Below the pieces are notes generated by a model that did no database searches, was not told where the DNA came from, and saw only the letters and a list, made by a program, of their open reading frames with translations. Below are positions 17,861-57,984 of a stretch of DNA of 64,000 bases, piece by piece. A program made the translations under genes and the position numbers. The stretch's first letter is position 1, and each line of letters starts with the position of its first letter. Source of the stretch: a virus (Duplodnaviria > Heunggongvirae > Uroviricota > Caudoviricetes); the IMG/VR virus record IMGVR_UViG_3300032038_000024, positions 37,689 through 101,688 of that record; one strand, written 5' to 3'.

Positions 17861-17997
17861 ATGCTACAATATATGTATATTTTTGTTATATGTTGCAAAT
17901 CAAATAAAAATAATATAACTAAATCACATTTATGATTTTTTAAGTCATATATTTTAATAAAAATAAATATTTTAAGACCTAATGTATTAAAAATAAA

Positions 17998-18022
17998 AGA
18001 GAGCAACATTAGTTGCCCTCTT
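17998..18022 (-). terminator. rho-independent terminator
   Basis: AGAGAGCAAC-ATTA-GTTGCCCTCT with one mismatch, then a U-run in − sense, directly after the stop at 18031. Confidence 0.55.
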
Positions 18023-18030
18023 AAATATAA

Positions 18031-19092
18031 TTATAAATTTGATTCATCTATATCACCATCCATATATGTTACAGTATCGGGATTTCTCCACCATGATGGA
18101 TCTATACCATCCTCAGAACATATTGTCCAATATTCAGAAATACGTCTTATTTGTTTAGGTGACAATACACGAGCAGCCATTTGTGTATATGTTTCAAATT
18201 GCCAATCAGGTACCCAGAATGTCATACCTTGCCAACTCCATTCCTGCCAACCATCCACACCGCCTGGCATTAAAGGAATTTTACTATCAACAAGCATATT
18301 TTTAATAGTTCCTAAACCTCTATTTGACTGCCAACTTGTAGCGTATGGGAAACCATCAGTTGTTCCAACAGTAAGAATATTTGCAATATCAAATCCTGGC
18401 TTAATATAATTATTCTTAAAATAGAAATGTTTAATAACTCTATCATCACCAGTTCCAATTCCATTACCGTCAAATGGATGATTATATGTTTCACCACTAT
18501 TTTCAAACCAGCATTTTTCTAAAGTATATGGAGTTGAACCATCAATATTAATAGCTGCAGAAAATGTTGGATGCCAATAACCTTTATTACCTTTAGGTTG
18601 TCGAACATAAATCTCTCTTAAATTATATTGTTCAAGTTCAGTAACAGATAAACCAGAAGGAATAACTGTGATAGGACATAATCCATGTTTCATCGCATAT
18701 ATATTTGTAAATGGTCTTAAATCTATTACTTCAATATTTTTATTGCCTAATAATGGACATTGACTACTTACAAATGATCCACTAATATCTATACGTTGGT
18801 TAACATCTACTACACCTATTGTATCACCAAAATAATTACTTTTACCAATATTTTCAGTAAATTCAGGATCGTCCCATTCATAATATGTACCATTAATGTT
18901 TTCAATTCTTAATTCATATCGTCTTGTTAAAAATTCAGTTTGATGTGGAAATGAATATAATGGTCTAATATAACCTTTTAAACGACCAGTTATATAACTA
19001 TCTTTTGTTAATTTATATAATTTTGGAATACATTCATTACTTACAGTTTCTGAACCTGTTGTATTTTGTGAAATTGTTATTTTATTTAACAT
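18031..19092 (-). CDS. hypothetical virion/tail-associated protein
   Basis: 353-aa protein, Trp-rich at the C-terminus, heading the fibre-gene block. Confidence 0.45.
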   Translation of the reverse strand: MLNKITISQNTTGSETVSNECIPKLYKLTKDSYITGRLKGYIRPLYSFPHQTEFLTRRYELRIENINGTYYEWDDPEFTENIGKSNYFGDTIGVVDVNQRIDISGSFVSSQCPLLGNKNIEVIDLRPFTNIYAMKHGLCPITVIPSGLSVTELEQYNLREIYVRQPKGNKGYWHPTFSAAINIDGSTPYTLEKCWFENSGETYNHPFDGNGIGTGDDRVIKHFYFKNNYIKPGFDIANILTVGTTDGFPYATSWQSNRGLGTIKNMLVDSKIPLMPGGVDGWQEWSWQGMTFWVPDWQFETYTQMAARVLSPKQIRRISEYWTICSEDGIDPSWWRNPDTVTYMDGDIDESNL

Positions 19093-19115: not shown

Positions 19116-22100
19116 TTAAATTTCAGAAAGTTTAATAACTTTATCAAATAAACTAAACATACCAGTTTTTGTATTATCAGTTGTTGAAATTGTTAATTCT
19201 GATATATCTGAAGAAGATGTAATTTGTACATATTGAGCATCCAATTTAGGTTGATTAACAATTGAAATTGCTGATGGTGTACCATAGAATAATTGTTGTA
19301 TTTCAGTACCTTCATTGAATTTAACATTCATATATGTATTTGTTAAATTAACATATTCAATTACATTTGTATTTGCTCCTGTTGAACTTAAATCAATAGT
19401 TTTATATTTTTCATCTAATCTATTGTTTTCAGGATCTTCTTCAAAACCAAGTTTATTACAACCAGATAAATTAAGTTTCTTTAATTTTTTCATTTCACCA
19501 AATACAATATTTGGATAATCTACTTGTTCTTGGTTATAAGTACGTTTAGTAAATGTTGTTAATCCAATACAATTAGATAAATCAATTTCTTCAACATTTG
19601 GTAAATATTGGAATATACTTGTAAATTGTATATCATCTCTCATAACATCTCCTGATGATCCATATTTTGTACCATTTGCTAAAGTTGTTGTAATACCTGT
19701 ATGAGTTTTTGCCTTAAACATTGTAAGTGATAACAAATCAGATTTATAGAAACCTGCAGTACTTATTGTATTTGTTATTTGTGAACCAGTACTATCTAAA
19801 TATGATTCACATAATGCATCCCACATAGCTGAACTGTTATTTGTATAAATTGGATATGCGTCATCCATTAATACAATATGTTTACTTATTTCTTTCCAGT
19901 CACCAGATTTGAAAGTAAATGTACATGTTAATACATAATCAATCATACCTGTTTTAGGTATTGTACCAGTAACTTTAAGAATAATTGGATATTCATGTGA
20001 TGCATTTTGTGCATAAGAGAAATATGAATCTTGTCTTATCTTAATAGTTGTATCATTATTTGGATTTTCCTTAAATGTTGTATATGATGATGAAAGAATT
20101 ACTTGTCCTGCTGGATTTTTCAATGTCCATGTAACACCATTAGGTTTTGTATTACCTTCAGCTTCAGCAAATGGATATTCCAAATCTAAATAAAATTCTA
20201 TAGCAGGCAATGTATCACTATGGAATACGAAACCACCATTATATTGTCTTAATTCATTACTTGCAGTTAAGATATCCCATTTTTCTGGGTATGATACTGC
20301 TAATATATGTATTAATATATATGATGATTCACCATTTAATGTACATAATAACAATACATCAAAATCTTTACCACCACTACTTTCAGCAACATTAATATAT
20401 AATTTACCAGTTTCATCTTGCATGAAGTTAACTGTTCTGAATGAACCTTTATTAATACTTTGTGAACCTGTTTGAGGATCTATAAAATACCATTGTGCAT
20501 CTACTTCAGTTTCTTGAAGTGTAAATCTTGTTGCAGATACAGTTACTTTTTTACCTTCAGCAATAAATATACCACTAGTTTTTAATTCATTATTTAATTT
20601 ATTTAATGCTGCTCTATCGTTTTGCTGTGTATAATAAGAACGTAATCTATCTCTTGCTGCATTATAAACTTGTTGTGTTGATGGATCTTTGATTGTTATA
20701 TCTCCAGGATCACCACCTTCACCAAAGTTAATTTGAACATAATCAAGAGGTTGGTCTACAACTAAGTTAGATTCTCTTGCAACTTTATTAAATGTATTTT
20801 CACCAAACCAGTGTTTAATATTAGTTAATTGTTCAGCAGTTAATTTCTTTTGCTTTGATAATTGCACATAACCAGTAATTGGTTTAGGCTTATTATCTAA
20901 ACCATTATTATTCTTATTATTAAATTCTGCAATTAATGATAATTGTTCATATGTTAATAATGAAGCACAATTGTCTTGTGTCCATTCAACATATTCCATT
21001 TCTAATGTACGTTGATTTAATTCTTGTCTTAATAATATTTCAATTGCTTTATCTGTACTATCATCACCTGTTAAATTATTTTGATTTTTTATAAGAATAA
21101 TTTTATCCTTAAGAGTAGTATTTGAATGTTCAACAATATAACCTCTAATACTATCAATCCAATTTAATACTAATAATTGTGCGTTTTCAGATGATGCAGT
21201 TTTACCAGTCATCTTAATACTATTCAATGAATAAGGAATATTCAATGACTGTCTTGAATTATTTTGGTGCTTGGTATATGTTACAGAGTTATCTGCTGCA
21301 CTAATTGCTGCATCCCAGAAAATAATATCTGACCAAGTTGAATCATGTAAAATTAATGTTTTAAAACCTTTTCCATCATCACCGTCAGCCATATCTGAAC
21401 GTGTATTGTATGCAGGTAATTCAAGCATTTCAAATTGGTTACCATCTTCAGCAGATTCAAATGATGTAATACCTGTTCCTTTTGCATAGAAATTTTGTAA
21501 TTCAGTCAAATTATTTGTGTGAATAATTGACATATCACTTAATTGTGTTAAACCAACAATATTAATTTCTTTTACAATACCTAAAACATTTTTACCTTCA
21601 AGTGCACCAAAATCCAATTGAAGTGTATTACCATTAACATAACCAGTTAAAACGTTAGTACCTGGTGTTCTCATTGTTGGAACACCCATATTTAATACCT
21701 TAATACATGGACCTAATACATTATCGTATGCACCTGTAAATGTAGCTGTGTCCATACCTTTTGCTAAACAACTTATATCTAATTCTTCAATAAATGTTGC
21801 ACCATAAATATGGAATGGAACCTTTGTAGCAAGGTTTAATGATGTAATATCAAATCTTGCTGGGTTTTCATGATCACAGTGTGTTGCACCAGATCCAATC
21901 TTTTGATAGTTTTGTTCAATTGTTAAATATGTTTCAGCATTTGGTCTGATAATAATAATTTCAGGTTGATTTGCATTACCTGCAGGCTTAACGGCACCAA
22001 CATAAATTGTATGACGTCTAAAGTCACCACAATTCCATTTGGCATCATAATAGTTCATTGATGTACTTAACCACCAGTGTCTATGTGTTGTTCTTGCACC

Positions 22101-25100
22101 TTGTAACCAGTTCAACCATGTATTTGAACCACCACCTGATAATACATATTTAAAATAACCTGAATCATTATATATGCTTTCGCACCATTTACCGGCATAT
22201 TCTTCATCAAATATCTTAGTAATATTTTCATATGTTAAACCTGCAGTATATAATGCTTCTGCAACTGCAGGAACGATTGTATCAGCCCAATATGGCCATG
22301 CTTCAAGTGCATCCCATAACCAGTTAGATGTTTTATATCCACCCATACCATCACCTTGTCTACCTGATATAGCATATTCATTTCTATCAGTTGCTTTTGT
22401 TGTATTACGATCTATAGGAGGATTAAATGCAATACCACCAGTATTTTTATTACCTAAAGCAATATCCATATCCCATGGTTCATAATGCCAGTGAATACCG
22501 TCATATGTTTTTAATTGAGCATTACGTTCAAGTGAGTCAACAAGACCGAATCTTAATACATAAATATAATATGCAGCTAATTTATATAAATCTAAGTGTT
22601 GTGCTGCTGTTTTTTCAAATTCTTCTTGATTTTCATATGTACTTGTAATCCATGCAAACCAGTCAATAAATGGTTGAATTGTTTCTCTATATTTTGAACC
22701 TTCATTGAATTTATCCATTCCTTCTTCTTCTTTAATATCATCAGGATCTGGATATATTAATTCAAATTCTTGTTCCCAGTTAAATACTCTTTCATTTGTT
22801 ATTCTACCTTGTTCATCTTTAAGGAATACTGTTGCATCAAAAGGATTACCTTCCTTATCATTATATTGCATATATGATGTAAATGGAGTATTAACATCCA
22901 ATACTTCAATACGTAATACGTTTGCGTTGTTCCATACTCTATTTGATTTATGGTCTTGACCTTTTTGACCTTCAATTAATGCATTACTACCATTTTTTGT
23001 ATTAATCTTTTTTAATACAAATGGATCTTTTTCATCATAAGGATCATTTGGATAATCTGAAGCTTCTCTATTTGCTGGTAATGGGAAATTATATATTGAT
23101 CTTTCACCAAATACGAAGTCAGCTTTTTTATCTTCCATTAATACATATGAACCTAAGAATGTTTCTTTATTATCAGCAGATGTATCTTTATAGAATACAA
23201 CAACTGGAATAGAATCAGGTGCAATTTGTATATCATAAGGGAAAGCTGTAGGACGTTCATTTAATCCAGTTTCATTATTTACAAATGTATCCTTCCATAA
23301 TTTATTATCATATGTACCTCTCCAGTTAACACCAATTGAATTGTTGTTATTTGGGTCTTTGTCTTCATTTAAATTTTTATCTACATTAGATATTACTTCG
23401 TTTGTTGTAAATAATTGTGGTGCAGTTCTTAATCTAAAATCAACTTTACCATTAACATTAAATTCGGCATTATACCAAGTTTGTTGTATTAATCTTTGTA
23501 AACCACCATTATGTACACCAGAAGAGTCTGCATAGTTTGCTTGAAGAACAAATTTATTTGAAGGTATTGATGCCTTTCTTATAACTGTTCTTCCATCAGC
23601 AGATATTTCCTCATCACGTAATCTATATCTATTCTTATTAAATTTACATGCTTCTTGTCCAACACAATGTAATTCTGGAGTAACATTTTTACGTGTTGAT
23701 TTATTGAACCAGAATTTCATTGAAGGTATAGGATAGTTCAATGTTGATTGACCATGTTTTCTAATCAATGCATTATAACATATAAAATCTTTTGAAGAAT
23801 CATAAGGACATGTTCTTTGAATAGTAACATCAGTTTCTGATTGTTTCTTTTTACTATCTTTATCCAATAATCTTGATAGATCACCGGTAATCAAAATAGT
23901 ATCTAATAATCCACAACATTTATCGTAACTCATTTTGTTACTTACATAAATATCGTTTCTTGTAATAATATCTTGTTTATTTTCAGCATCAAAAACCCAG
24001 TTATTATATGCTTCTTTATATGTTAATGGAAAATCATATACTCTTATTGTATATACTTTAACACCTGAATTAGATCCACCAATCTTAATAGGACCTGTTG
24101 TTTCAAATGAGAATGAACTTGATGATATACCTCTTTCAAGAATACCATTATTTACAATAAATATTAATTCTGATTTTTCATTATTTGATCTTGGATTAAT
24201 AATGAAATGCAATTTAAGACGTTCATTTGTCTTAAAGTTTGTCTTAATACGTTCTTCACCACCAGTATCATATAATATTGCAGAGTTTGGTGTAATATCA
24301 ATTCTTGCTTGATAATCAGAACCAATTCTAATTAAAACATCTTGGTCATTATTAATCTTTTCGCTTTCAAATTCAATTTCAATTGTTTTACCTCTTGTAT
24401 AATCAGCTAATGGTGAACAATTGATTATTGCATATGAATCAGGTCCATAAGTTCTTAATGCACCATTTTGAGCATCCCAACCGTTAATGTTATCCCATTT
24501 AAATCCAGTAAATTCTGTTGAATATCTACCATATGTCCATGTATTTACACCTGAACCAATATTTTCTCTACCGTAAGCAGTTAATTTTAATTCATATGAT
24601 GCTGTTTCATATACACTGTTTCCCTTTTCAATTTTCATTGGTATTGAAATAATTTGTTGTCCATCAATTTTCGCAACCAAATAAATTGGCTTTTTGTTTT
24701 GTGTATATAATGAAGGCATAAATGATAATGGATTTTTTGCTTCCTTAAATCTACTTATACCAACACCAGTTGTCAATACAACTGTATCTCCAAGAGTTTG
24801 TTGTAATTCCCAACTAACATTAATATCACCTTGGTTATTATTATCACTATAATAACCCCATTCTAATTTATATGGATCATATTGTACTGCACTTAAAGTA
24901 GGTAAACCTAAAATTGGTAAATCTGCAACTTCTGATGCATTAATAGATGCTTTAAAGTTAACAAAATGGTTTGCAATTGATGGAGTATCTTCTCCATTAA
25001 AATCTTTTCTTACTTCAAATGTATAGAATAATATATTACTTGTAAAAACAGTATTATTTTGTGATATACGACAATAAATTTGTAATGTATGATATATTGG

Positions 25101-26006
25101 GGTTTCTGATGTACTTTGTGTTAATAAATCTTTAAGACGTACACCTTGAACAGATGTCATACCAAGAAATTGTCGTTTCATAACAACAAACTGGTTTTCA
25201 ACACTTAATTGTGTTGAATCATAGTGATCTGTTTCGTCATTTAAAGTCCATTTACCATCTAATACATAATAAATAGTAAATCCTGAATTAGGTCTTGTAT
25301 TTAAGTTAACTACAACATTATTAACATTAAATTCAGCTTGACTAATTTTATCTGATGTGTATTCAAAATCTGCATCAATATTAAAATTAATCATAGTAAT
25401 TGATACTGAAGGACTAGCTTCAGCTTCATAGTTAATTGCACTTAATTTTAATGTTACTGTATTTTCACCTTCATCAAGATACTTATAGAAATCACGAGTA
25501 ATTGTTTTTTCAGATCTACTTATTCTTTCTGTTTGTGTATGAACTTTATTTGTTGCAAGATTTTTAATTTCATATGTAGCTCTAATTTCATCAGAAAGAA
25601 TTGTTTCACCTTGTTTTATTTCCCATGAATATGTAATTGTCGATCCTGTTTGTTTATCGTCACCTTTAATAACATAACGCAAATCAGCATTAACAATTTC
25701 ACATTTTAAATCATATTCTGATTGTTTAGGCAATTCAGCAATTTGTAAGTTTTCCCATCCAGCAAATGGTGCTCTACCTTCTTTACCAGCTTTCCATAAA
25801 TTATATGCAGCTTCACTAGAAAATATTCTATATCTTGTAGTGTCTTTAAAAACATATATAGGCTTACGTAAATGCTCTTGTAAAAGATTTCTTATAGCTA
25901 AACCTGAAGGTTGTTTATTGTTTGTTGCTGACTGACCTGGTATATTTACATCTTCACCATTTATCCAGTTTACAAACTCTGTAATATTATCATTATATAA
26001 GTCCAT
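19116..26006 (-). CDS. giant (2296 aa) tail fibre/adhesin-like protein with a central CotH-like domain
   Basis: Uninterrupted 6.9-kb ORF. LYKLAAYYIYV...YDGIHWHYEPWDMDIALG resembles the CotH WDxDxxFG core; the C-terminus has LRR-like KLKKLNLSGCNKL. Confidence 0.55.
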   Translation of the reverse strand: MDLYNDNITEFVNWINGEDVNIPGQSATNNKQPSGLAIRNLLQEHLRKPIYVFKDTTRYRIFSSEAAYNLWKAGKEGRAPFAGWENLQIAELPKQSEYDLKCEIVNADLRYVIKGDDKQTGSTITYSWEIKQGETILSDEIRATYEIKNLATNKVHTQTERISRSEKTITRDFYKYLDEGENTVTLKLSAINYEAEASPSVSITMINFNIDADFEYTSDKISQAEFNVNNVVVNLNTRPNSGFTIYYVLDGKWTLNDETDHYDSTQLSVENQFVVMKRQFLGMTSVQGVRLKDLLTQSTSETPIYHTLQIYCRISQNNTVFTSNILFYTFEVRKDFNGEDTPSIANHFVNFKASINASEVADLPILGLPTLSAVQYDPYKLEWGYYSDNNNQGDINVSWELQQTLGDTVVLTTGVGISRFKEAKNPLSFMPSLYTQNKKPIYLVAKIDGQQIISIPMKIEKGNSVYETASYELKLTAYGRENIGSGVNTWTYGRYSTEFTGFKWDNINGWDAQNGALRTYGPDSYAIINCSPLADYTRGKTIEIEFESEKINNDQDVLIRIGSDYQARIDITPNSAILYDTGGEERIKTNFKTNERLKLHFIINPRSNNEKSELIFIVNNGILERGISSSSFSFETTGPIKIGGSNSGVKVYTIRVYDFPLTYKEAYNNWVFDAENKQDIITRNDIYVSNKMSYDKCCGLLDTILITGDLSRLLDKDSKKKQSETDVTIQRTCPYDSSKDFICYNALIRKHGQSTLNYPIPSMKFWFNKSTRKNVTPELHCVGQEACKFNKNRYRLRDEEISADGRTVIRKASIPSNKFVLQANYADSSGVHNGGLQRLIQQTWYNAEFNVNGKVDFRLRTAPQLFTTNEVISNVDKNLNEDKDPNNNNSIGVNWRGTYDNKLWKDTFVNNETGLNERPTAFPYDIQIAPDSIPVVVFYKDTSADNKETFLGSYVLMEDKKADFVFGERSIYNFPLPANREASDYPNDPYDEKDPFVLKKINTKNGSNALIEGQKGQDHKSNRVWNNANVLRIEVLDVNTPFTSYMQYNDKEGNPFDATVFLKDEQGRITNERVFNWEQEFELIYPDPDDIKEEEGMDKFNEGSKYRETIQPFIDWFAWITSTYENQEEFEKTAAQHLDLYKLAAYYIYVLRFGLVDSLERNAQLKTYDGIHWHYEPWDMDIALGNKNTGGIAFNPPIDRNTTKATDRNEYAISGRQGDGMGGYKTSNWLWDALEAWPYWADTIVPAVAEALYTAGLTYENITKIFDEEYAGKWCESIYNDSGYFKYVLSGGGSNTWLNWLQGARTTHRHWWLSTSMNYYDAKWNCGDFRRHTIYVGAVKPAGNANQPEIIIIRPNAETYLTIEQNYQKIGSGATHCDHENPARFDITSLNLATKVPFHIYGATFIEELDISCLAKGMDTATFTGAYDNVLGPCIKVLNMGVPTMRTPGTNVLTGYVNGNTLQLDFGALEGKNVLGIVKEINIVGLTQLSDMSIIHTNNLTELQNFYAKGTGITSFESAEDGNQFEMLELPAYNTRSDMADGDDGKGFKTLILHDSTWSDIIFWDAAISAADNSVTYTKHQNNSRQSLNIPYSLNSIKMTGKTASSENAQLLVLNWIDSIRGYIVEHSNTTLKDKIILIKNQNNLTGDDSTDKAIEILLRQELNQRTLEMEYVEWTQDNCASLLTYEQLSLIAEFNNKNNNGLDNKPKPITGYVQLSKQKKLTAEQLTNIKHWFGENTFNKVARESNLVVDQPLDYVQINFGEGGDPGDITIKDPSTQQVYNAARDRLRSYYTQQNDRAALNKLNNELKTSGIFIAEGKKVTVSATRFTLQETEVDAQWYFIDPQTGSQSINKGSFRTVNFMQDETGKLYINVAESSGGKDFDVLLLCTLNGESSYILIHILAVSYPEKWDILTASNELRQYNGGFVFHSDTLPAIEFYLDLEYPFAEAEGNTKPNGVTWTLKNPAGQVILSSSYTTFKENPNNDTTIKIRQDSYFSYAQNASHEYPIILKVTGTIPKTGMIDYVLTCTFTFKSGDWKEISKHIVLMDDAYPIYTNNSSAMWDALCESYLDSTGSQITNTISTAGFYKSDLLSLTMFKAKTHTGITTTLANGTKYGSSGDVMRDDIQFTSIFQYLPNVEEIDLSNCIGLTTFTKRTYNQEQVDYPNIVFGEMKKLKKLNLSGCNKLGFEEDPENNRLDEKYKTIDLSSTGANTNVIEYVNLTNTYMNVKFNEGTEIQQLFYGTPSAISIVNQPKLDAQYVQITSSSDISELTISTTDNTKTGMFSLFDKVIKLSEI

Positions 26007-26043: not shown

Positions 26044-26247
26044 TTAATCATGCCATGGTGTATCGTCTGTCCAAGGATATTCGTCTGCCCAATATCCATT
26101 ATAGTAACATGACAATATCATTTCACCTAAAGCTCCTAAAGGCCAAATTTTAATACCTCTCAAATATATTTCAGCAATTGATTGGTCTTCAAAATATACT
26201 CTATGTAAATTTGTAATTTTTCCTTTAAAATTAGAACGTTTAATCAT
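26044..26247 (-). CDS. small protein (possible fibre assembly factor)
   Basis: 67 aa; TAATG coupling with the upstream gene. Confidence 0.4.
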   Translation of the reverse strand: MIKRSNFKGKITNLHRVYFEDQSIAEIYLRGIKIWPLGALGEMILSCYYNGYWADEYPWTDDTPWHD

Positions 26248-28661
26248 TATCTTGATATATCTTTTCTATTTGTATCCATTGCTATATATTGCTCAACTGA
26301 AGCATCAGGAGCAGAAACAGTAATATTTGAAGATGGTGTTACATTTGTATTATAATGGAAATTTAATGCATTTTCTAAATTAATTGTATTAACTGCTGCA
26401 ATTGAACCAGCAATAATTATGCCTTTTAATCCATTATGTATAGTATATATGGAACCTTTTGATGCTTTACCATTTCTTCCATATATATCTGCAAACCCAC
26501 TATTCTTTTTTTCTAATTCTGTTGTTCCTGTTGTAGGACCTACTGTTGTATATACACAGTTATCTCTAACAACACAAAATCCTGAAAATGGTTTAATATC
26601 TTCAACAGTATATTTTCCGTTAGGATTTTTAACATCACTATTAATAAAATCAAAATCTATCCAATCTTGTAAAATACTTCCATTAACAATACAATCATAT
26701 CCAATACAAAATGCATTTGATTTTATTCCACGTTGACCACATTTTGTTACAATTATACTTCCTTTTGAATCATTTATTTTAACTGTACCACCATCAATAC
26801 CATCTCCTAAACTTGATGTTATATATAATACTGTTTCATTTTTTGCTTCAATATCAATATTATTTTCTGATTTTATACAGTCTCCTAAATATGTTGTTGC
26901 TGAAATAAATTCAACAGTTTCATTTTTATTTTCAATTATATTAATACCTGTTTTTGAAATAACTTTTACTTTACCGTATGCTTTACCATTATATTCTTCA
27001 GGATTAAAATAAATATTAGGAACATTTAATGCAGTTGTTAAATAAGCATTATTTAATTGAATAGTACAATCTTGTTTTGGTGCAGTTATAAGTTCTATAG
27101 GTTTATCAATAACACCAGAAATCGTTATAAATTGACAATCAGTTACATATCTATCACCTGTAACTGAAATTTCAATTTCGTCAGCTTCATCAGGATGATC
27201 CATATCATATTTTGATGCATACCCAATAATTGAAGAAGATTTAACACCTAAAACAGATTTAAATGTATTAATTGACAATTCACTCATATTATTCATTGTC
27301 ATATTACCGCTATTTCCTACAGTAATATGTTTTGAATAAAATCCTGGGTTTTTACTATCAAATAAATCTCCACTTAAATTATATCCATAAAAACTTCCTC
27401 TGAATAATAATATTTTACCAGTATTACCAGTACCTAATCCATCATTACCTTGGTTAACATAAACTGTACCGTCATGTACAGTAATGTTTTTGCCATGAAT
27501 GCCATCATGTACACATTCACAATAAATATGAGGACCACAAATATTTGTTTCTGTACCTCTTATACAGTGTCCACCAAGATTTTTTAATGCAATATAGCCA
27601 GTTCCTTTTATTGTTAAATCATGCATAGAATATATTGCACCTGGTTGTGGCACATCTTCTACTCTTGGCTCATTTTTGTTACATAATATAATGTTCTTAG
27701 AATTTCTTGCAATATTAATAATTAAACCTTGATAACCTTTATTTTCTTCTGGTGTTTTATATGTAATAGCAGTATTATTATCAGATACAATTGTAACATT
27801 ATTTAAAATAAGTTCAGTATCTCCATAAGATTTCATTAAATCTGTATCATATATGGTTGTATCTATTTCTAATTCACCATATAATATACCTGATATTGTA
27901 TATGGAGTACTACTTGGTGATAATGTAATTTTACCATTTGTTGTATATTTTACACCATTAATTGTTAAGTTTGTAGATAATACTGTATCACCACCTGGAG
28001 TATCACCACCTCCATTATTTATAATGATATAATCAGGTTCACCTGTTATAAAATATAATGTATTAGCACTATATGAAGTTAATGCATCATATTCTTCTTT
28101 TGACATTACTGCATGTTTATATTCATCTTGTGAATTTACTAGTGTTTCAAGTTCATTTAATGCATTTCTTAAAGATATAATATCTGCTTTTGTAGCTGCA
28201 GCTGTTTGTCCATTATGATATGATTCTAATGTTGTAATTTTATTTTCTGCACTACTTAAACGATTTGATAAATTATCTGGTATTTCATTCATGAACGCAG
28301 ATTGTAATCCACCAATACTTGAAGTATTTTGTGATATACGACTAGATAAATTATCTAATTGTTGAGCTAAATCTGTAGGTATATTACCACCAGCAGATCC
28401 ATTTTCAATTGCTTGTTTTAAATCTGCAATAAGAGCAAGTAATTGACCAGTAGATGTTATTGGATCATCAATACCTTCAATTTCTACTTTATTCCAATCA
28501 ATATCAATTGCATTTATAATTGGTCTAACTTTAGTAATCTTACCAGATGAATCAACTCCATATTCACCACTAGATATCTTATTACCACCAGTTTTTAAAC
28601 CTGCATTAAGTATATCTTTAAATGTTACGGTTCTTCCATTATATTCTTCACTAAAATTCAT
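26247..28661 (-). CDS. tail fibre/spike protein with an N-terminal coiled coil and a beta-helix-like G/N/T-rich body
   Basis: Repeated G-x-N/T-I-x-V motifs (HGKNITVHDGTVYVNQGNDGLGTGNTG). Confidence 0.5.
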   Translation of the reverse strand: MNFSEEYNGRTVTFKDILNAGLKTGGNKISSGEYGVDSSGKITKVRPIINAIDIDWNKVEIEGIDDPITSTGQLLALIADLKQAIENGSAGGNIPTDLAQQLDNLSSRISQNTSSIGGLQSAFMNEIPDNLSNRLSSAENKITTLESYHNGQTAAATKADIISLRNALNELETLVNSQDEYKHAVMSKEEYDALTSYSANTLYFITGEPDYIIINNGGGDTPGGDTVLSTNLTINGVKYTTNGKITLSPSSTPYTISGILYGELEIDTTIYDTDLMKSYGDTELILNNVTIVSDNNTAITYKTPEENKGYQGLIINIARNSKNIILCNKNEPRVEDVPQPGAIYSMHDLTIKGTGYIALKNLGGHCIRGTETNICGPHIYCECVHDGIHGKNITVHDGTVYVNQGNDGLGTGNTGKILLFRGSFYGYNLSGDLFDSKNPGFYSKHITVGNSGNMTMNNMSELSINTFKSVLGVKSSSIIGYASKYDMDHPDEADEIEISVTGDRYVTDCQFITISGVIDKPIELITAPKQDCTIQLNNAYLTTALNVPNIYFNPEEYNGKAYGKVKVISKTGINIIENKNETVEFISATTYLGDCIKSENNIDIEAKNETVLYITSSLGDGIDGGTVKINDSKGSIIVTKCGQRGIKSNAFCIGYDCIVNGSILQDWIDFDFINSDVKNPNGKYTVEDIKPFSGFCVVRDNCVYTTVGPTTGTTELEKKNSGFADIYGRNGKASKGSIYTIHNGLKGIIIAGSIAAVNTINLENALNFHYNTNVTPSSNITVSAPDASVEQYIAMDTNRKDISR

Positions 28662-28716: not shown

Positions 28717-29334
28717 TTAACTTCCAGTTTGTGCTTCAGATGTATTATTATTTGATGCTTTCAATGAATTTTCAATCTGTTTAATGAAGTCACGAGAACC
28801 ACGAACAACCATTGAACCATCTTCTGATTCTTCTTTTTCTTTTTCTTGGAATGTCTTATCACAATTCTCTTGCATTTCTTTAAATATATTCTCAAGATTA
28901 GCTGTTAAAGTATTCAATTGTGCTTGCATTTGAAGCATTGAATTTTGTAATGATGTAAGAGAAGAATAAAGAGTTCCCTTTGCAGAATTGCCTGTAATAG
29001 ACATAATTAATGTATCTTGAGCCTTTTCGTTTACTGATAACATCTTTAATAATCTTCTTATATTATCAATTTCTTGCGTAATCTTTGATGTAACATAAGG
29101 ATGATTATCAATATACTTTTGGTCAAAATAATATGCTGCTAATTTGTTTGTGATATCTGTTGCTCTTTCCAATGTTCTTTTATCAACTTCATCCATGTCA
29201 ATTAAGAATATTGGAGTTTCAAGAGCATCATCAGTATCTTGTAAATCTGGAGACTCACTCTTTAAGAACAAATTATCTAATACAGTATCTTTATCTTGAG
29301 GATCTTCAGTTCCGTATTTTCCTTCGTAATTCAT
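28717..29334 (-). CDS. hypothetical coiled-coil protein
   Basis: 205-aa ORF. Confidence 0.45.
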   Translation of the reverse strand: MNYEGKYGTEDPQDKDTVLDNLFLKSESPDLQDTDDALETPIFLIDMDEVDKRTLERATDITNKLAAYYFDQKYIDNHPYVTSKITQEIDNIRRLLKMLSVNEKAQDTLIMSITGNSAKGTLYSSLTSLQNSMLQMQAQLNTLTANLENIFKEMQENCDKTFQEKEKEESEDGSMVVRGSRDFIKQIENSLKASNNNTSEAQTGS

Positions 29335-29411
29335 ATTAGCTTATTGAATTATTTTTATTATATTGTTTAGTAAAAATAAAAAAATAATTTGTAAGCCAGA
29401 GTATAAAGCAC

Positions 29412-29445
29412 AAAAAAGGTTACTGAAATAATCAGTAACCTTTAT
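29412..29445. terminator. rho-independent terminator
   Basis: AGGTTACTG-AAATAAT-CAGTAACCT flanked by an A-run and a T-run. Confidence 0.6.
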
Positions 29446-29466
29446 ATTTTTCTTAAATCTTCTCCT

Positions 29467-29970
29467 TTAATAATATGATGTTTTTAATTTTGATCTATCA
29501 TATTCATATATATCAGCAATTAAACCATTTAATGCAGCAAATATTTCTTTATATGTATAAGATTTACCACTTGAATGATATCCACCATCTGTTTTTAATA
29601 TCCAATCACATTTGTCAACACCATTTTTAATATCAAATAATGTTTCAAAACCATCAGCAGTTAACATTAAAACACCTTTATTATTACGTACGAAAATAAT
29701 AACATTGCTTCCACCAGTTGCAGTTTCTTTATGTTTTTTACGAAGATCTTTTAATACTTCAGGAGTAAGTTCAATATTATCTTCAACTAATTTTGTTATT
29801 GCATTTACTTTTCCATTTATACTTATAGGACATTTTTCAGTTTTAAATGCCTTTATTGCTTCTTTAGTATCTTTATATTTTGGTGTAGCATCATTAATAT
29901 AATAATCATTACTTTGTAATTTATTTTCATTAATTAATGATTCTAAAATAAAATTTTTAATATCCTGCAT
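29467..29970 (-). CDS. hypothetical protein with the shared N-terminal motif (MQDIKNFILE)
   Basis: 167-aa ORF. Confidence 0.45.
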   Translation of the reverse strand: MQDIKNFILESLINENKLQSNDYYINDATPKYKDTKEAIKAFKTEKCPISINGKVNAITKLVEDNIELTPEVLKDLRKKHKETATGGSNVIIFVRNNKGVLMLTADGFETLFDIKNGVDKCDWILKTDGGYHSSGKSYTYKEIFAALNGLIADIYEYDRSKLKTSYY

Positions 29971-30087
29971 AACTTATTAAATTTAATTATATTTAATATT
30001 TAATAAAAATAATAAAAATAAATTAAAAAAATGATAGACAAGTCATTAAATAAATTTATTTTAATTAAATAATACTTAAATTTATAT

Positions 30088-30900
30088 ATGATATATATAT
30101 GTAATCATTTAAAAAATCCTAACATTGATATTGATGAAAAATATTTTAAAATTATTAATGTAACTGATTTTGATAATTCCGATGATTTAATTTTACAATC
30201 TCAAAAATATTTTAATGAATTTACAGTTACATATTATATATATAAAAACAAAATATATAATAATGAACCTTGGGTTGGATTTTGTCATTATAGACGTATA
30301 CTAAAATTAAAAGATATTAATATTGAAAGAATATTAAAGAATCATGAATTACAATATTTTTATGAAATGCAATATACTTGGGAACCTGAATATAATAAAC
30401 AATTATATGATTATGAATACCCAAGAATAGCAGAATTTCTGAATAATTTTTCAACTAATGATATGTTTTATAATGATATTTGTGAATATATAAATACTTG
30501 TGGAAGTGAAGAAGATAAAAAACATTTTAAAAATATATGTTCAATAAATAGTTATTATGATGCAAATTTTATTGTAAAATCAATATATATAACTACAATT
30601 GATATTTTTGAACAAATATGCGAATTTATTATAAATTATATACGTTTTATATTTGATAAATATAATATTAATTCATTAGTTGACTTTATATTGCATATTG
30701 ACACAAATATGAAAAATCATCTTAAAGTTTCATCTTATACTATGATACCTGGAAATAATATGAGAATATATGCATATATTATTGAAATATTAACTGGAAT
30801 GTATTGTATGAAATTTGATACATTTAAAACACATCAATATAGATTAGAAATGGGATCATGTTCATGTTATAATGATGAAGCATTTTCTACAGAAGCATAA
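30088..30900 (+). CDS. hypothetical Cys-rich protein; lone + strand gene, moron-like
   Basis: 270-aa ORF, extremely AT-rich, on the opposite strand to its neighbours, ending at a bidirectional terminator. Confidence 0.4.
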   Translation: MIYICNHLKNPNIDIDEKYFKIINVTDFDNSDDLILQSQKYFNEFTVTYYIYKNKIYNNEPWVGFCHYRRILKLKDINIERILKNHELQYFYEMQYTWEPEYNKQLYDYEYPRIAEFLNNFSTNDMFYNDICEYINTCGSEEDKKHFKNICSINSYYDANFIVKSIYITTIDIFEQICEFIINYIRFIFDKYNINSLVDFILHIDTNMKNHLKVSSYTMIPGNNMRIYAYIIEILTGMYCMKFDTFKTHQYRLEMGSCSCYNDEAFSTEA

Positions 30901-30928
30901 AAAAAGCAGCTAGTTAACTAGCTGCCTT
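30901..30928. terminator. bidirectional terminator (palindrome)
   Basis: AAAAAGCAGCTAG-TTAA-CTAGCTGCCTT. Confidence 0.6.
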
Positions 30929-30949
30929 ATTATTTAAGGTATTTATTTT

Positions 30950-33049
30950 TTACTCTACCTCTTCAAATGTTTCCTCCTTAGAGTTGTCCTTCTTTTTGTT
31001 GTCCTTCTTTGTTCCCTTACCTGGTTTTGGATCTTCAGGAGCAGGAAGTTCAGATGTACCCTTTCCAAAGAGTCCCTTAAACTGATCCTTAACACCACTG
31101 TTAATCATATCCAATGCAGGAGCAAAGTTCTGAACGAAGCTCTTAGCAAAGTCAGCACCAGTGTTCTTATCACCGTAAACGGTAACATTACCAAGCTGTA
31201 CGTGTTCAAGTACCTTAGCCTGAGCCTCTGCAATACCCTTATACTGGTCAACCATCTTGTACTGAACAACAAGATCAGGATTACCACCTACAGCTGCAAC
31301 CATTCGTTCAAGAGCCATAGCAGGAGCAAGTTCCTTCTGCTGGATTGCCTCAGCTTCTGCAAGCAAGCTTGCCTTCTTACCTTCAGCCTCAGCCATCAAC
31401 TTATTCTTGGTACCTTCAGCTTCAGCATTCAACTTCATACGAGTTGCTTCTGCCTCAGCTTCAGCCTTTCTCAATACCTGAGCCTTGATTGCCTCAGCCT
31501 CAAGTTCTGCCTTACGCTTAATTGCCTCAGCCTCAATAACTGCCTTTTCTTTAGCCTTTTGTGCTGGAATAATTTCAGTAGCATTCAAGTTTTCCTCAGC
31601 AGCCTTTGCAGCAGCCTTGTTAACTTCCATCTGACGGTCTTGACGAGTCTTCTCGACTGACATCTCAGCTTCAACCTTTGCAGTTTCAGAAACCTTTACG
31701 GCATCTGCTTCAGCTTGACCTGCCTTTGCACGAGCCTGTGCAACTTCAATCTTTGCCATCTGTTCAGCAACACCTGCCTTCTTATCCTGTTCTGCCTTAC
31801 GTTGTCTCTTATTAGATTCATATTCAGCAGCCTTTGCTTCCTTCTCCTGAGTAGCCTTAATTACTTCAGCTTCCTTCTGTTGGTTAGCTTGTGCAATACG
31901 AGTTTGCTTCTTTGCTTCCTGCTCGTTCTCAGTTGCCTCAGCATCTGCCTGAGCAGTTGCAATTGCCTTTGTCTGTTCAGCTTCTGACTTTGCCTTTGCA
32001 GACTCAGCCTCTGCCTTACGTGCAGCCACTGCTGCTACCTTCTTTGCATTTGCCTCAGCTTCCTTAGAAGCAGCCTCAGCATCTGCTGCTGATACATTTG
32101 CAACCTGCTTTGCCTTAGCTGCAGCTTTCTTTGATTCTGCATCAGCCTGAGCTTCTGCAATATTTGCTACCTTTTCAGCTTCCTGAGTTGCAATACCTGA
32201 CTCACGTTCCTTTTCAGCCTCAGCCAATTGGATTTGCTTGTCTCTCTCAATACCAGCAACTTTTACTTCCTGTTCCTGACGTGTCTGATTAACAGTAACC
32301 TGCTTCTCCTTCTCAGCTGCAGCAACAGCAATTTCCTCTTCCTTCTTTGTATTAGCAATCTTTACGTTTCCTTGCTTCTTCTGTTCAGCAATATCTGCCT
32401 CAGCTTCAGCTTGCTTACGAGTTGTTGCTTTCTGACCCATGTTCTTGATATAGTTGGCATCATCAGTAATTTCTGAGATATTGATATTAGTTACATCGTA
32501 ACCTATCTTAACCAACTCCTGCTCAAGATTAGTACGAACCTTTGTCAAGAACTTATCACGGTCAGCATTAATTTCCTCAATAAGCATTGTTGCCATAATA
32601 GCACGAGTCTCACCAATCAAGATTTCTGAAATCTGACCTTGGATTTCACCAGGTGTAGCACTCAAGAAACGAGTTGCGGCATTCTGTTGGATCTCCTTGT
32701 CTCGTGAAATAGCTGTAGTTAATACAACTGGCAAGTGCAACTGAATTGCCTGTGAATCAATACCATCAACTGTCGCCTTAATCTGAATAGGCTTCATTGA
32801 CATCTTTTTGTAATCCTGAATGACAGGCCATACAAACGCACCGCCACCTTGGATAATCTTTGATGGTACTACAATTGTCTGCTGCTTTCCATCTTCTCCT
32901 TGAACTTGGATCTTACCGGACTTACCGAATACAACCAAAAGTTCATCAGGTGCAGAACGACGATAACGAGAAAGAATTCCCCAAACGGTTAGTACAAACA
33001 AAAGTACACCACCACCAATCAAACACAAAGTTAAAATTGTTTCGTTCAT
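30950..33049 (-). CDS. flotillin-like SPFH/band-7 protein (YqiK/FloT type)
   Basis: N-terminal TM helix, an SPFH-like region, then a very long Ala/Glu-rich (AEAEA) coiled coil. GC is locally higher than in surrounding genes. Confidence 0.7.
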   Translation of the reverse strand: MNETILTLCLIGGGVLLFVLTVWGILSRYRRSAPDELLVVFGKSGKIQVQGEDGKQQTIVVPSKIIQGGGAFVWPVIQDYKKMSMKPIQIKATVDGIDSQAIQLHLPVVLTTAISRDKEIQQNAATRFLSATPGEIQGQISEILIGETRAIMATMLIEEINADRDKFLTKVRTNLEQELVKIGYDVTNINISEITDDANYIKNMGQKATTRKQAEAEADIAEQKKQGNVKIANTKKEEEIAVAAAEKEKQVTVNQTRQEQEVKVAGIERDKQIQLAEAEKERESGIATQEAEKVANIAEAQADAESKKAAAKAKQVANVSAADAEAASKEAEANAKKVAAVAARKAEAESAKAKSEAEQTKAIATAQADAEATENEQEAKKQTRIAQANQQKEAEVIKATQEKEAKAAEYESNKRQRKAEQDKKAGVAEQMAKIEVAQARAKAGQAEADAVKVSETAKVEAEMSVEKTRQDRQMEVNKAAAKAAEENLNATEIIPAQKAKEKAVIEAEAIKRKAELEAEAIKAQVLRKAEAEAEATRMKLNAEAEGTKNKLMAEAEGKKASLLAEAEAIQQKELAPAMALERMVAAVGGNPDLVVQYKMVDQYKGIAEAQAKVLEHVQLGNVTVYGDKNTGADFAKSFVQNFAPALDMINSGVKDQFKGLFGKGTSELPAPEDPKPGKGTKKDNKKKDNSKEETFEEVE

Positions 33050-53843: not shown

Positions 53844-54521
53844 TTAATTCAACATTAGTTTATGTTCATCATATCGTCTCTCAATATGTCCTGGAGCAGA
53901 AATTCTACTTGTTTTAACAGCAGCAATTGTAAAATTCAAATCATTCTGATTTATAAATCCTGGAGTATTCTTATCATATCTGCATCTTGACCAACGATCC
54001 CAAAATTCAGTCAATGTTACACCACGCTCACCACAATTATAAATCAAACTACCAAGACCATCAATAAATCCCTGTGAATAAATAAATCGTCTGTCATGTT
54101 GTTTAATAAGTCGATTGATTGCATCGTTTACCCATTCAATATCCTTTTCAAACAATTCATCTGCTTTCTTTTGTGTAATATGTTCTAGACTTTCACCAGG
54201 TTGTATCTGATGACCCCAACCAACAGAACGACGTTGTGGATCCGGATCATTATAAGCATTCAATACACAAGTCTCCTTTGACTTAATAAAATCTTTACCA
54301 GTTTTTGAAAGCCTATAAGTATTAGGACGTTTAAGATGTTCAACATTTACAGTCTGTTCAGAAATATTGAACATGGCTGAAGTATTGAACAATGAATCTG
54401 TTTTCACAAAATTTGTATTATTTTCAGCTGACATGAAACTGGTACAAAACAGCTGATAAAATATTGCTAAACAAAAAATTACTGAAAGAAATCTGTTTGG
54501 TGTAATTTTACTATTCATCAT
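53844..54521 (-). CDS. endolysin, GH24 lysozyme with an N-terminal signal/SAR-like hydrophobic segment
   Basis: RRSVGWGHQIQPG...ITQKKADELFEKDIEWVNDAI aligns with T4L TIGIGH...[21 protein letters not shown]. N-terminal LSVIFCLAIFYQLFCTSF. Confidence 0.6.
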   Translation of the reverse strand: MMNSKITPNRFLSVIFCLAIFYQLFCTSFMSAENNTNFVKTDSLFNTSAMFNISEQTVNVEHLKRPNTYRLSKTGKDFIKSKETCVLNAYNDPDPQRRSVGWGHQIQPGESLEHITQKKADELFEKDIEWVNDAINRLIKQHDRRFIYSQGFIDGLGSLIYNCGERGVTLTEFWDRWSRCRYDKNTPGFINQNDLNFTIAAVKTSRISAPGHIERRYDEHKLMLN

Positions 54522-55429: not shown

Positions 55430-55843
55430 TTACTCGAAAACTATTTTTGACTCTCTTTTAACATTTTCAATTGAGTCAGAACTATGCATAGCATTTTTCA
55501 TATCGTTCTTTCCCCATTTATCTCTAACTTTATCTTTAAGTGAATCCATTTCTTCAATTGGATCTTCACATTCCTTATAGCATTTTACGCATAAGCATTC
55601 TCCAGATGACATATATTCAACAAGATCATCATAGAAGTCTTTTCCCTTATGCATCATATATAATTGTTCAGCTTGCTCTTTTGTTAATTTTAATTTCTTT
55701 TTATCAAGAATATCCCATTCATCTTCTTCTAACATCTTGAGCCAAGCTTCTTCATGTTCTAAAAATTCAGGTTTTAATATAACGAATGAATTTACATAGT
55801 CTTCTTTCGATTCGTTAATTATGTAGTCTTTTAATGATATCAT
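55430..55843 (-). CDS. hypothetical acidic protein with the shared N-terminal motif (MISLKDYIINE)
   Basis: 137 aa. Confidence 0.45.
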   Translation of the reverse strand: MISLKDYIINESKEDYVNSFVILKPEFLEHEEAWLKMLEEDEWDILDKKKLKLTKEQAEQLYMMHKGKDFYDDLVEYMSSGECLCVKCYKECEDPIEEMDSLKDKVRDKWGKNDMKNAMHSSDSIENVKRESKIVFE

Positions 55844-55859
55844 AATATCTTTATTTAAT

Positions 55860-55905
55860 CTATATTTAAAAATAACAAAAAGAGTAACCGAAGCTACTCT
55901 TTTAC
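55860..55905 (-). promoter_or_regulatory. promoter/terminator cassette, copy 1
   Basis: − sense hairpin AGAGTAGC-TTCG-GTTACTCT, then TTGTTATTTTTAAATATAG. Identical to 58009-58050 except for 1 nt. Confidence 0.55.
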
Positions 55906-55920: not shown

Positions 55921-57984
55921 TTATTGTTCTACCTTAGTCCAATTATACTTACCTAAGTAATAATATCCTGTATCCATCCATGTATCATAACCAGTACTAC
56001 CACTTGGCACTGTTAATGTACCACCCATTTTCACATCTTTGAATGTATTGTCATATATAATAGGTGCAGTCATAGCATTAGACACTATATTTGTAAGACC
56101 ACTACAAGCAGCGAAAGCACTAACAGCAATGTTTGTAACACTACTACCTATGGTTACACTTGTTAAACCAGTACAATCTGCGAAAGCAGCACTTCCAATA
56201 GATGGTGTAGAATCACCTATAATTACTGTTTCAAGATTAACCCAACCAGCTCTAAAAGAAGAACTTAACTCACATTTTGCATTGTAGTTTAAAACATTTA
56301 AAGCATCAGTACTTCCGAAAGCTCCCATACCAATACTTGTAACACTATCTGGTATGGTTATACTTGTAATACCACCACAATTAGCGAAAGCACTAACACC
56401 AATACTTGTAACACTATCTGGTATATCTATACTTGTTAAACCACTACAATTATAGAAAGCACCATCATTAATAATTGTAACATTATTGCCTATAGTTATA
56501 CTTGTTAAACCAGTACAACCTACGAAAGCACCTTCACCAATGCTTGTACATAATTTTCCAATTTCAACGTTTACAAGTGTTGACTTATAATCTTGTATCA
56601 TAGTAGATGTTAATTCACCACTATCTTCAAGCTCAACAACACTGTCGTCATTTAATGTAAGTTTGCAGAAGAAAGAAGGTTCAACTTTAGTCCAATTATA
56701 CTTACCTAAGTAGTAATCTTCAGCACTCATCCATGTATCATATCCTGTACTACCACTTGGTACTGTTAATGTACCACCAGTTTTTATATTTTGGAATGTA
56801 AAACTTTCTATTGTAGGTGCAGTTATTGCATTAGATACTATACTTGCTAAACTACTACAATCTCTAAAAGCAAAATTACCAATACTTGTAACACTATCTG
56901 GTATATCTATAATTGTTAGACTACTACAATCTTGGAACGCATAATTACCTATACTTGTAACACCACTGCCTATTGTTACACTTGTTAAACTGCTACACCC
57001 ATTAAAAACATTAGCATCAATGCTTGTAACACTATCAGGTATATCTATACTTGTTAAATTAGTACAGCCGTAGAAAGCACTATCATCAATGCTTGTAACA
57101 CTATCTGGTATATCTATACTTGTTAAACCTATACAATTACTGAAAGCAGAATAACCAATGCTTGTAACACTATCAGGTATAATTGTGTTTTTACAACATT
57201 GTATAATTGCATTAGTACTTGTATTAATAATTCCATTACAATTGTTACGTGAGTCATATACTGTATTATTACTATCAACTGTCATACTTGTAAGATTATC
57301 ACAACCTGAGAAAGCATTATTTCCGATGCTTGTAACACTACTACCTATAGTTACACTTGTAAGACCATTACAACCGCGGAAAGCATACTGACTAATGTTT
57401 GTAACACTATCTGGTATAATTATACTTGTTAAACCACTACAATTTTCAAAAGCATAGCTATTAATATTTGTAACACTATCAGGTATATCTATACTTGTTA
57501 ATGAACCACAACTATCAAAAGCATTATTTCCGATGCTTGTAACACTACTACCTATAGTTACACTTGTAAGACCACTACAGTTATTGAAAACATTATAACT
57601 AATATTTGTAACACTATTTGGTATTATACACTCTATTAAATTACTATTATAAAACACAGGAGCTTGATTACCTAATTTTGTTTCATCATATAACTCATAC
57701 TTAACTGTATGTTCACCTGTTGTGTTAAATGTATAGGCAGCTACAAGTTCATCTAACATAACACCATCAATTTCCATTGACTTAAATATATTCTCCTCAA
57801 AGTTTGTTCTTAATGTTGTAGGAGAAGATGTACTTGTTACATTATACTTACATACAAGCTTTGTTTCTGGTACATAAGGATTGTAACTCACACCCATGGT
57901 TTCTTCTATCAAAGACACATTAGGCAAATCTAATGTTGCTGCATTATAAGCTGCAGCTGTTTCAAATAATGTTATATATTTCAT
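55921..57984 (-). CDS. BspA-like leucine-rich-repeat (LRR_5) surface/adhesin-type protein with an internal tandem duplication
   Basis: About 20 repeats of IPDSVTSIGNxAFxxCxxLTSx. Two copies of the LRR block plus a GGTLTVPSGSTGYDTWM...YYLGKYNWTKVE module; at DNA level 55937-56687 repeats 56687 onward. Confidence 0.7.
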   Translation of the reverse strand: MKYITLFETAAAYNAATLDLPNVSLIEETMGVSYNPYVPETKLVCKYNVTSTSSPTTLRTNFEENIFKSMEIDGVMLDELVAAYTFNTTGEHTVKYELYDETKLGNQAPVFYNSNLIECIIPNSVTNISYNVFNNCSGLTSVTIGSSVTSIGNNAFDSCGSLTSIDIPDSVTNINSYAFENCSGLTSIIIPDSVTNISQYAFRGCNGLTSVTIGSSVTSIGNNAFSGCDNLTSMTVDSNNTVYDSRNNCNGIINTSTNAIIQCCKNTIIPDSVTSIGYSAFSNCIGLTSIDIPDSVTSIDDSAFYGCTNLTSIDIPDSVTSIDANVFNGCSSLTSVTIGSGVTSIGNYAFQDCSSLTIIDIPDSVTSIGNFAFRDCSSLASIVSNAITAPTIESFTFQNIKTGGTLTVPSGSTGYDTWMSAEDYYLGKYNWTKVEPSFFCKLTLNDDSVVELEDSGELTSTMIQDYKSTLVNVEIGKLCTSIGEGAFVGCTGLTSITIGNNVTIINDGAFYNCSGLTSIDIPDSVTSIGVSAFANCGGITSITIPDSVTSIGMGAFGSTDALNVLNYNAKCELSSSFRAGWVNLETVIIGDSTPSIGSAAFADCTGLTSVTIGSSVTNIAVSAFAACSGLTNIVSNAMTAPIIYDNTFKDVKMGGTLTVPSGSTGYDTWMDTGYYYLGKYNWTKVEQ

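Follow-up and report, generated by a model that had tools for sequence, protein, structure and literature searches.

The CotH kinase of Bacillus is a coat component that phosphorylates coat proteins. Some of the gut's most abundant phages, Hankyphage and several crAss-like lineages among them, carry giant CotH-domain proteins at the position of host recognition. The subject of this study is a protein of this kind encoded in a window of 64,000 nucleotides, which comprises positions 37,689 to 101,688 of the IMG/VR virus record IMGVR_UViG_3300032038_000024 (Caudoviricetes); all coordinates given below are those of the window. A giant open reading frame (ORF) on the minus strand, 19116..26006, begins with ATG and runs uninterrupted for 2,296 aa, and its product is a modular, fibre-like protein with a CotH core.

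Published work only records the existence of the giant CotH proteins, and the CotH domain within them has been termed 'currently unstudied' (PMC8008677). The CotH-containing PC_00012 is among the proteins linked to diversity-generating retroelements (DGRs) (Roux et al., 10.1101/2020.04.01.020958), and 'domain group 3' of Macadangdang et al. combines CotH with carbohydrate-binding and leucine-rich repeat (LRR) domains (10.1101/2024.11.15.621889). The Hankyphage homologue is named a tail fibre, and was found by mass spectrometry in particle preparations (PMC12135933, S6 table). The protein described here is a new, non-DGR member of this large, noticed but uncharacterized family, and not a new kind of element.

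The CotH domain

The giant protein is a member of the CotH kinase family (PF08757), confirmed by Pfam, by the fold and by its homologues. The sequence-only reading had proposed a central CotH-like domain, to be judged by an hmmscan with PF08757 and by structure prediction domain by domain, and both uphold it; the lack of a significant CotH match, named there as grounds for refutation, was not observed. The curated cut-off of the Pfam model is 23.8 bits, and it is exceeded both by aa 1001-1300 (32.5 bits, E 8.5e-8) and by aa 1101-1333 (29.9 bits, E 5.2e-7). Of the 322 profile positions, 98-275 are matched, leaving the N-lobe outside the sequence match. The match is seen only with pieces of 230-300 aa, and is absent in scans of the full 2,296 aa and of an 800-aa piece; a scan against NCBIfam gave no match. 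The same family is found in the relatives. A precomputed PF08757 assignment is attached to 18 of 40 homologues in a collection of 5.8 billion proteins, and when nine diverse family members were scanned singly five matched the model, the best with E 7e-11.

The fold was examined using an AlphaFold2 (AF2) model of aa 700-1560, built from an alignment of 37 sequences, with a predicted local distance difference test (pLDDT) score of 78 and a predicted template modelling score (pTM) of 0.83. Comparison with solved structures using Foldseek returned the CotH kinase of B. cereus, 5JD9 with E 2.3e-7 and 5JDA with E 3.4e-7, both with probability 1.0 and a TM score of 0.62-0.64 normalized to the target over ~640 query columns. 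No other solved fold was returned with E <1e-3 for this model. The agreement between the predicted fold and the CotH kinase is well beyond chance. The domain (aa ~700-1340; 21987..23909, minus strand) has the two-lobed, atypical protein-kinase-like fold of CotH and is about twice the size of Bacillus CotH owing to several large insertions, which are evident when it is aligned with compact relatives. The CotH core is the best-conserved part of the protein in comparison with the crAss-like phage cr272, the identity being 64% at aa 1101-1200.

Conservation of the active-site residues

The segment first quoted as CotH-like (LYKLAAYY...WDMDIALG) is present at aa 1140-1191 (22434..22589, minus strand). 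Conservation, hhalign alignment and DSSP analysis of the model together suggest that it comprises a helix, a catalytic loop D1157-x4-N1162, a beta hairpin and the motif D1179-x-D1181. We aligned 119 diverse relatives over aa 700-1420. These are otherwise just 27-40% identical, and yet eleven positions are 100% conserved, i.e. G752, S754, K960, E1034, D1157, N1162, D1179, D1181, K1286, Y1287 and G1303, with E1082 conserved at 97%. The four residues of the two motifs are among the invariant positions. The catalytic-type Asp, Asn and Asp residues are therefore kept in the window protein and, as judged from the alignment, invariant in the family, which answers in the affirmative the question raised at the outset of whether the catalytic aspartates are retained.

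Two family alignments were compared with the 5JD9 chain using hhalign. The E-values were weak, at 0.13 and 0.06, and the register in the catalytic region was identical in both, placing VD(1157)SLERN(1162) opposite FDGFVHN and PWD(1179)MD(1181) opposite PWDYD of 5JD9. A B. subtilis CotH sequence served as the probe for residue numbering, and retrieved 5JD9_A with E 5e-142. We take D1157, N1162, D1179 and D1181 to be equivalent to D228, N233, D251 and D253 of this probe. The probe reproduces the published residue numbers, and the catalytic D228 and metal-binding D251 are positions at which mutation inactivates B. subtilis CotH (PMC7821199). In the model of the window protein D1157 and N1162 lie in a loop following a long helix (aa 1140-1153), and D1179 and D1181 follow a beta hairpin formed by aa 1163-1167 and aa 1173-1177. 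Protein kinases such as PKA have the same order of elements, a catalytic loop and then a metal-binding aspartate (D166, N171 and D184). The predicted secondary structure thus agrees with the assignment of a catalytic loop and a metal-binding aspartate.

Architecture of the protein

Residue 1 of the protein is where homology to gp54 of crAss-like phage cr272_1 begins, and the G+C content is even across the region of the ORF at ~28-30%. The domains are described from the N-terminus, with all coordinates on the minus strand. AF2 modelling and Foldseek comparison indicate that aa 1-460 (24627..26006) form a string of beta-sandwiches of immunoglobulin-, macroglobulin (MG)- or Fn3-like type, moderately variable in sequence. 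They are followed by a ConA/LamG-like lectin jelly roll at aa ~470-690 (23937..24599), which is part of the conserved core. Both were seen in a second AF2 model, of aa 1-720, with a pLDDT of 71.6 that is low in parts and a pTM of 0.51; the pLDDT rises to ~90 at aa 470-670. Foldseek matches to this model were strings of MG domains from complement C3 and alpha-2-macroglobulin, fibronectin, and also lectin jelly rolls that included the PilC lectin module (7OA7) and the lectin domains of trans-sialidases. The jelly roll aligned to the HCN domain of botulinum neurotoxin (5TPB) with a root-mean-square deviation of 4.3 over 231 columns. Pfam gave no match in the jelly-roll region.

The region after the CotH domain (aa ~1400-1760; 20727..21809) is semi-conserved and is probably an LRR-like solenoid, of which aa ~1400-1560 fall within the model of aa 700-1560. 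In that modelled section short strands recur at regular spacing, which suggests an LRR-like solenoid there, and structural relatives in BFVD bear LRR or internalin-like names. Pfam LRR models gave no match at aa ~1400-1760. The distal tip (aa ~1780-2296; 19119..20669) is variable and has a putatively LRR-like end at aa ~2130-2210. At the extreme C-terminus LRR_4 scored 23.5 bits (cut-off 27) and LRR_EndoS 16 bits, both below threshold, and a strict LRR regular expression matched once against 3.6 matches expected by chance, i.e. with no enrichment. An LRR-like character of the C-terminal part is plausible.

The family of giant CotH proteins

How general is this architecture? An exhaustive search with a hidden Markov model (HMM) of the catalytic lobe returned 1,407 representatives of 50%-identity clusters at E<=1e-3, of which 260 remain at the stricter E<=1e-30. 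Among the best 150 of the 1,407 nearly all are 1,900-2,700 aa in length, with the domain at ~aa 850-1300. For a comparison along the length of the protein we used 150 sequences, made up of 148 newly returned representatives together with cr272 gp54 and the Hankyphage protein. The lectin-like and CotH core is common to 119 of these. The N-terminal 450 aa are shared by 32, the post-CotH region (aa 1420-1780) by 30, and the tip of the window protein by just five. The Hankyphage tip is likewise found in five of the 150, the Hankyphage protein itself included. The description of the N-terminal 720 aa and C-terminal 756 aa draws on such cluster representatives, on IMG/VR loci and on one AF2 model.

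Among annotated phages full-length homologues, with 35% identity, were found only in the crAss-like cr272_1 and cr273_1, and the distal tip is 18-36% identical to that of cr272. Phage relatives in BFVD are already labelled 'Spore coat protein H kinase fold' or 'CotH kinase protein'. One further BFVD entry is gp353 of Bacillus phage G (G3MA94), a large protein of CotH-like fold (E 4.8e-13) in a jumbo phage of a spore-forming host, which suggests that phages recruited the fold independently or anciently. The only matches in 185,579 reference genomes were two contigs of rumen metagenome-assembled genomes labelled Erysipelotrichaceae, 46-49% identical in the core; these are probably phage contigs binned with bacterial ones, and provide no reliable host. 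Homologues at four IMG/VR loci (L019, L023, L029 and L041) lie on contigs of ~176-183 kb, and these therefore form a third size class beside the ~100-kb crAss-like and 435-kb jumbo contigs.

In the crAss-like carriers the gene has features of its own. Four in-frame TAG codons fall within the first 430 codons of that for cr272_1 gp54 (locus L001, 12001-18537), and a gene for tRNA-Gln lies 3.5 kb upstream of it; at two other loci (L003 and L004) the crAss-like gene appears as fragments of 770-1,280 aa in metagenome gene calls. The in-frame TAG codons and fragmented calls fit with stop-codon recoding in these carriers.

There is a practical warning in the behaviour of the Pfam model, as routine full-length HMM annotation overlooks the CotH domain. 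Pipelines that scan full-length proteins would label the family 'hypothetical', as in the cr272_1 and Hankyphage records, and many 'hypothetical protein' labels probably arise in this way.

The locus and its variable cassette

The window is part of the genome of a jumbo myovirus, a very large gut or rumen phage. Its structural genes include those for a gp23-like capsid protein, most similar to the capsid proteins of huge phages, for a prohead protease and for a sheath protein of 1,047 aa. A scan of IMG/VR gave 37 loci, of which three (L009, L013 on a 435-kb contig, and L040) belong to sister phages with identical gene order. The giant gene lies in an apparent unit of four genes on the minus strand, defined by terminator-like hairpins at both bounds, one upstream of the first gene (29415..29443) and one after the last (17997..18022). 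The first gene, p205 (28717..29334), has 85-89% identity in L009, L013 and L040. It is followed by p804 (26247..28661), the giant gene, and p353 (18031..19092), for which no family or phage match was found. A scan with promoter consensus sequences found no more sites than in shuffled sequence.

The proteins of the sister phages divide sharply in their identity to those of the window. The capsid proteins of L009 and L013 are 95 and 84% identical respectively, their SPFH proteins 95 and 83%, their proteases 80 and 68%, and p205 89 and 85%. The corresponding values for p804 are 39 and 33%, and for the giant gene 32-52% and 23-48%; p353 has a 26% match at the equivalent position in L009 and none in L013. 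The DNA gives the same picture. Similarity to L009 (79-86%, with 86% at the left) ends at 17993 and resumes at 28440, and between these positions only the lectin-CotH core is weakly alignable. The left edge of the variable region thus lies at the hairpin after p353, and the right edge is inside p804, where the first ~75 residues are conserved and the remainder varies.

The N-terminal end of the p804 protein is conserved, and its C-terminal 570 aa vary. The protein contains a tail-fibre motif, PF24243 (Phage_tail_C), at aa 185-206 with E 1.7e-7, and its aa 230-803 are 38% identical to cr272 gp55, encoded directly upstream of gp54. A role for p804 as the partner in every carrier of a giant gene is ruled out, since it was found only in cr272 and cr273, in the sister jumbo phages and at locus L041.

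A distal cassette that is swapped while its anchors stay conserved is classically the mark of a host-range determinant. The sequence comparison shows that the larger part of p804, together with the giant gene and p353, makes up a hypervariable cassette set between conserved structural genes, and marks it as a candidate host-range cassette. The core of the window protein is 45-51% identical to the crAss-like versions compared with 42-52% to those of its own sister phages, and the cassette appears to have been exchanged between jumbo myoviruses and crAss-like podoviruses; Hankyphage-type siphoviruses have only the LamG and CotH core. The sequence-only reading had placed the giant gene within a host-recognition block, and this is borne out by the hypervariability of the cassette in sister phages, the tail-fibre motif of p804, and the Hankyphage homologue, which is a DGR-diversified tail fibre.

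DGR diversification of the window gene itself is ruled out. Neither in the gene nor in the 64-kb window were there repeats of the kind formed by the variable region and template repeat of a DGR, and no reverse transcriptase was found among the scanned ORFs.

A number of other features of the window were observed. Adjoining the fibre cassette, 29359-30947 does not align with L009 and contains p167 and, on the opposite strand, a DUF4422 (glycosyltransferase-like) gene at 30088..30900; it looks like a second, small variable islet. A 699-aa SPFH/Band-7 protein is encoded among the structural genes at 30950-33049, and is 82-95% identical in the sister jumbo phages. A span of 7 kb holds genes for two separate proteins with phage-lysozyme domains and for an N-acetylmuramoyl-L-alanine amidase (48056-48793, 53844-54521 and 54582-55241). 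A BspA-type LRR protein (LRR_5, E 6e-119), built of 69-nt periodic repeats, is encoded at 55921..57984, and its gene has at either end a direct repeat of 71 nt (55830-55900 and 57979-58049), the two copies of which are 86% identical and include a hairpin; in the crAss-like carriers a BspA-like LRR gene lies directly downstream of the CotH gene. A second giant ORF, of 1,757 aa, runs from 58053 to 63326 on the minus strand and has no match in Pfam or PHROG.

Function of the giant protein

We consider that the protein is probably a giant modular host-recognition protein of the jumbo myovirus, a distal tail fibre or adhesin, encoded within the apparent late unit p205-p804-giant gene-p353. From the N-terminus it would comprise a beta-sandwich stalk, the lectin jelly roll and CotH core, a probable LRR-like solenoid and a fast-evolving tip, and it is the distal tip that most likely would make the specific contact with the host surface. 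A fibre role is favoured by the predicted adhesin-like beta-sandwiches and lectin jelly roll of the N-terminal half, by the retention of the core while the N-terminal region and tip vary, and by the terminator-like hairpins at the bounds of the four-gene unit. There is a good likelihood that the protein is carried on the virion. The chances are even or slightly better that the CotH domain is a working phosphotransferase that binds nucleotide and metal. Such activity could be exerted in the host cell while the fibre is being assembled, since ATP is at hand there, and the domain would then phosphorylate itself or partner fibre proteins. Phosphorylation of this kind at the time of assembly is our preferred mechanism, offered tentatively by analogy. 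We favour it because of the availability of ATP at that stage, and because the only bacterial CotH to have been characterized is itself part of a structure whose neighbouring proteins it phosphorylates.

Several observations weigh against this interpretation. The window protein is known from its gene alone, the MS of particles being that of the Hankyphage homologue, and those data came from lysate precipitated with polyethylene glycol, at 6% coverage (PMC12135933). Neither phmmer nor three family profiles searched against the PDB ever reached a solved CotH at significance, and nor did a profile of 119 sequences compared with 5JD9 by local hmmsearch; the link to the solved CotH structures runs through the Pfam model and the fold. 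The equivalence of the active-site residues likewise depends on the consistent register taken together with the Pfam hit and the fold, the hhalign E-values being weak on their own. The alignment of the N-lobe to 5JD9 is unreliable, and the invariant K960, K1286 and E1034 and the nearly invariant E1082 are no more than candidates for an ATP-binding lysine or Lys-Glu pair. A search of the window for a CotB- or CotG-like substrate gene rich in Ser, Lys and Arg gave only two matches, both of them antisense frames. Lastly, an outward-facing fibre has little ATP, which makes it difficult to see how a kinase would work at the surface of the cell.

In a rival interpretation the CotH domain is a non-catalytic module for ligand binding or scaffolding and the protein is purely an adhesin, comparable to the GRP78-binding invasins of the Mucorales. 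An external fibre has no ready supply of ATP, the CotH domain has a lectin-like jelly roll on one side and on the other a region that looks LRR-like in its modelled part, and fungal CotH proteins serve as surface ligands (PMC9973265). Yet the D-x4-N and D-x-D motifs and further lysine and glutamate residues are 100% conserved in 119 relatives, which would be unexpected for a mere scaffold, and the GRP78-binding motif is not found in the window protein. We regard a purely adhesive role as unlikely.

The conservation of the catalytic residues would equally be expected of an enzyme that acts on the host, either phosphorylating or otherwise modifying a surface glycan or envelope protein at adsorption, or delivered into the cell to phosphorylate proteins of the host at an early stage of infection. 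Glycan and lipopolysaccharide kinases such as Fam20B, POMK and WaaP are among the proteins with kinase-like folds, and a substrate at the surface could be held in position by the adjoining domains, one lectin-like and the other possibly LRR-like. Manipulation of host signalling has moreover been proposed for DGR-linked relatives (Roux et al., 10.1101/2020.04.01.020958). Against this, a source of ATP is absent outside the cell, a protein of 2,296 aa with a hypervariable, DGR-targetable tip resembles an external binder rather than ejected cargo, and no candidate substrate was found, making a host-directed enzyme distinctly improbable. A large late protein that is not part of the virion and lies merely by position among structural genes, serving for example in envelope modification for superinfection exclusion or in the timing of lysis, would be compatible with knowledge limited to the gene and with the location of the crAss-like homologue upstream of endolysin and terminase genes, away from recognized tail genes, but we think it very improbable given the conserved N-terminal end, tail-fibre motif and variable distal part of the upstream gene of the cassette, and given that the Hankyphage homologue, diversified by a DGR, is encoded among the distal tail genes and was recovered by MS from preparations of particles.

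Returning to the host-recognition protein with its CotH core, what would follow from catalytic activity? A bolder form of the proposal is that the conserved lectin and CotH core is an active, virion-borne phosphotransferase, carried on a swappable cassette across myovirus, podovirus and siphovirus lineages of gut Bacteroidota phages. We hold this to be doubtful at present. If true, it would constitute a new enzymatic class of phage host-recognition protein, which would either phosphorylate components of the fibre or virion as an obligatory step in assembly, or modify a glycan or protein of the host envelope on contact.

Set against the published record, three things are new here. The LamG and CotH core is found in jumbo myoviruses without a DGR. 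It lies within a cassette that is hypervariable between sister phages and exchanged with crAss-like phages, and its kinase-type active-site residues are, by alignment, invariant across the family. The role of a kinase fold in a tail fibre thereby becomes a concrete question, testable with named point mutants.

Comparison with known systems

Among the comparable systems are the CotH invasins of the Mucorales, CotH2 and CotH3. They likewise display a CotH-family domain at a surface where it takes part in interaction with a host cell. They differ in being eukaryotic, anchored by glycosylphosphatidylinositol and of another architecture, and their GRP78-binding motif QTNDGAY is absent from the window protein.

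Bacillus CotH (B. cereus 5JD9 and 5JDA, and the B. subtilis protein) shares the atypical kinase-like fold and the Pfam family with the window protein, and its D228, N233, D251 and D253 align with the D-x4-N and D-x-D motifs. It too is a component of the structure that it helps to build. It is a stand-alone protein of ~360 aa, whereas the domain in the window protein is ~640 aa within a multidomain protein of 2,296 aa, and the identity is ~10%.

Much closer are gp54 of the crAss-like phage cr272_1 and its counterpart in cr273_1 (Crassvirales, Suoliviridae, Buhlduvirus), homologous over the full length; the identity is 35% overall and reaches 64% within the catalytic core. The upstream partner is also common to the two systems, p804 resembling gp55 over aa 230-803 with 38% identity. 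In contrast the cr272 carrier has a podovirus-type genome of ~98 kb, gp55 lacks the N-terminal 230 aa of p804, and gp54 is annotated as hypothetical.

The DGR target or 'tail fibre' of the Bacteroides Hankyphage p00 (BK010646, 31489-38226; 2,245 aa) belongs to one family with PC_00012 and 'domain group 3' and is, like the window protein, more than 2,000 aa in length. The LamG-like and CotH core is homologous in the two, tblastn aligning aa 457-1532 of the window protein with ~25% identity and E 7e-19; the homology thus runs slightly beyond the core, ending at aa 1532, as blastp also shows. The Hankyphage gene directly follows those for the tape measure, hub and minor tail proteins, and is the target of the DGR. 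The window protein differs in being without the C-type-lectin variable region, and its N-terminal 450 aa and its tip are unlike those of Hankyphage. The carriers also differ, Hankyphage being a temperate siphovirus and the carrier of the window a jumbo myovirus.

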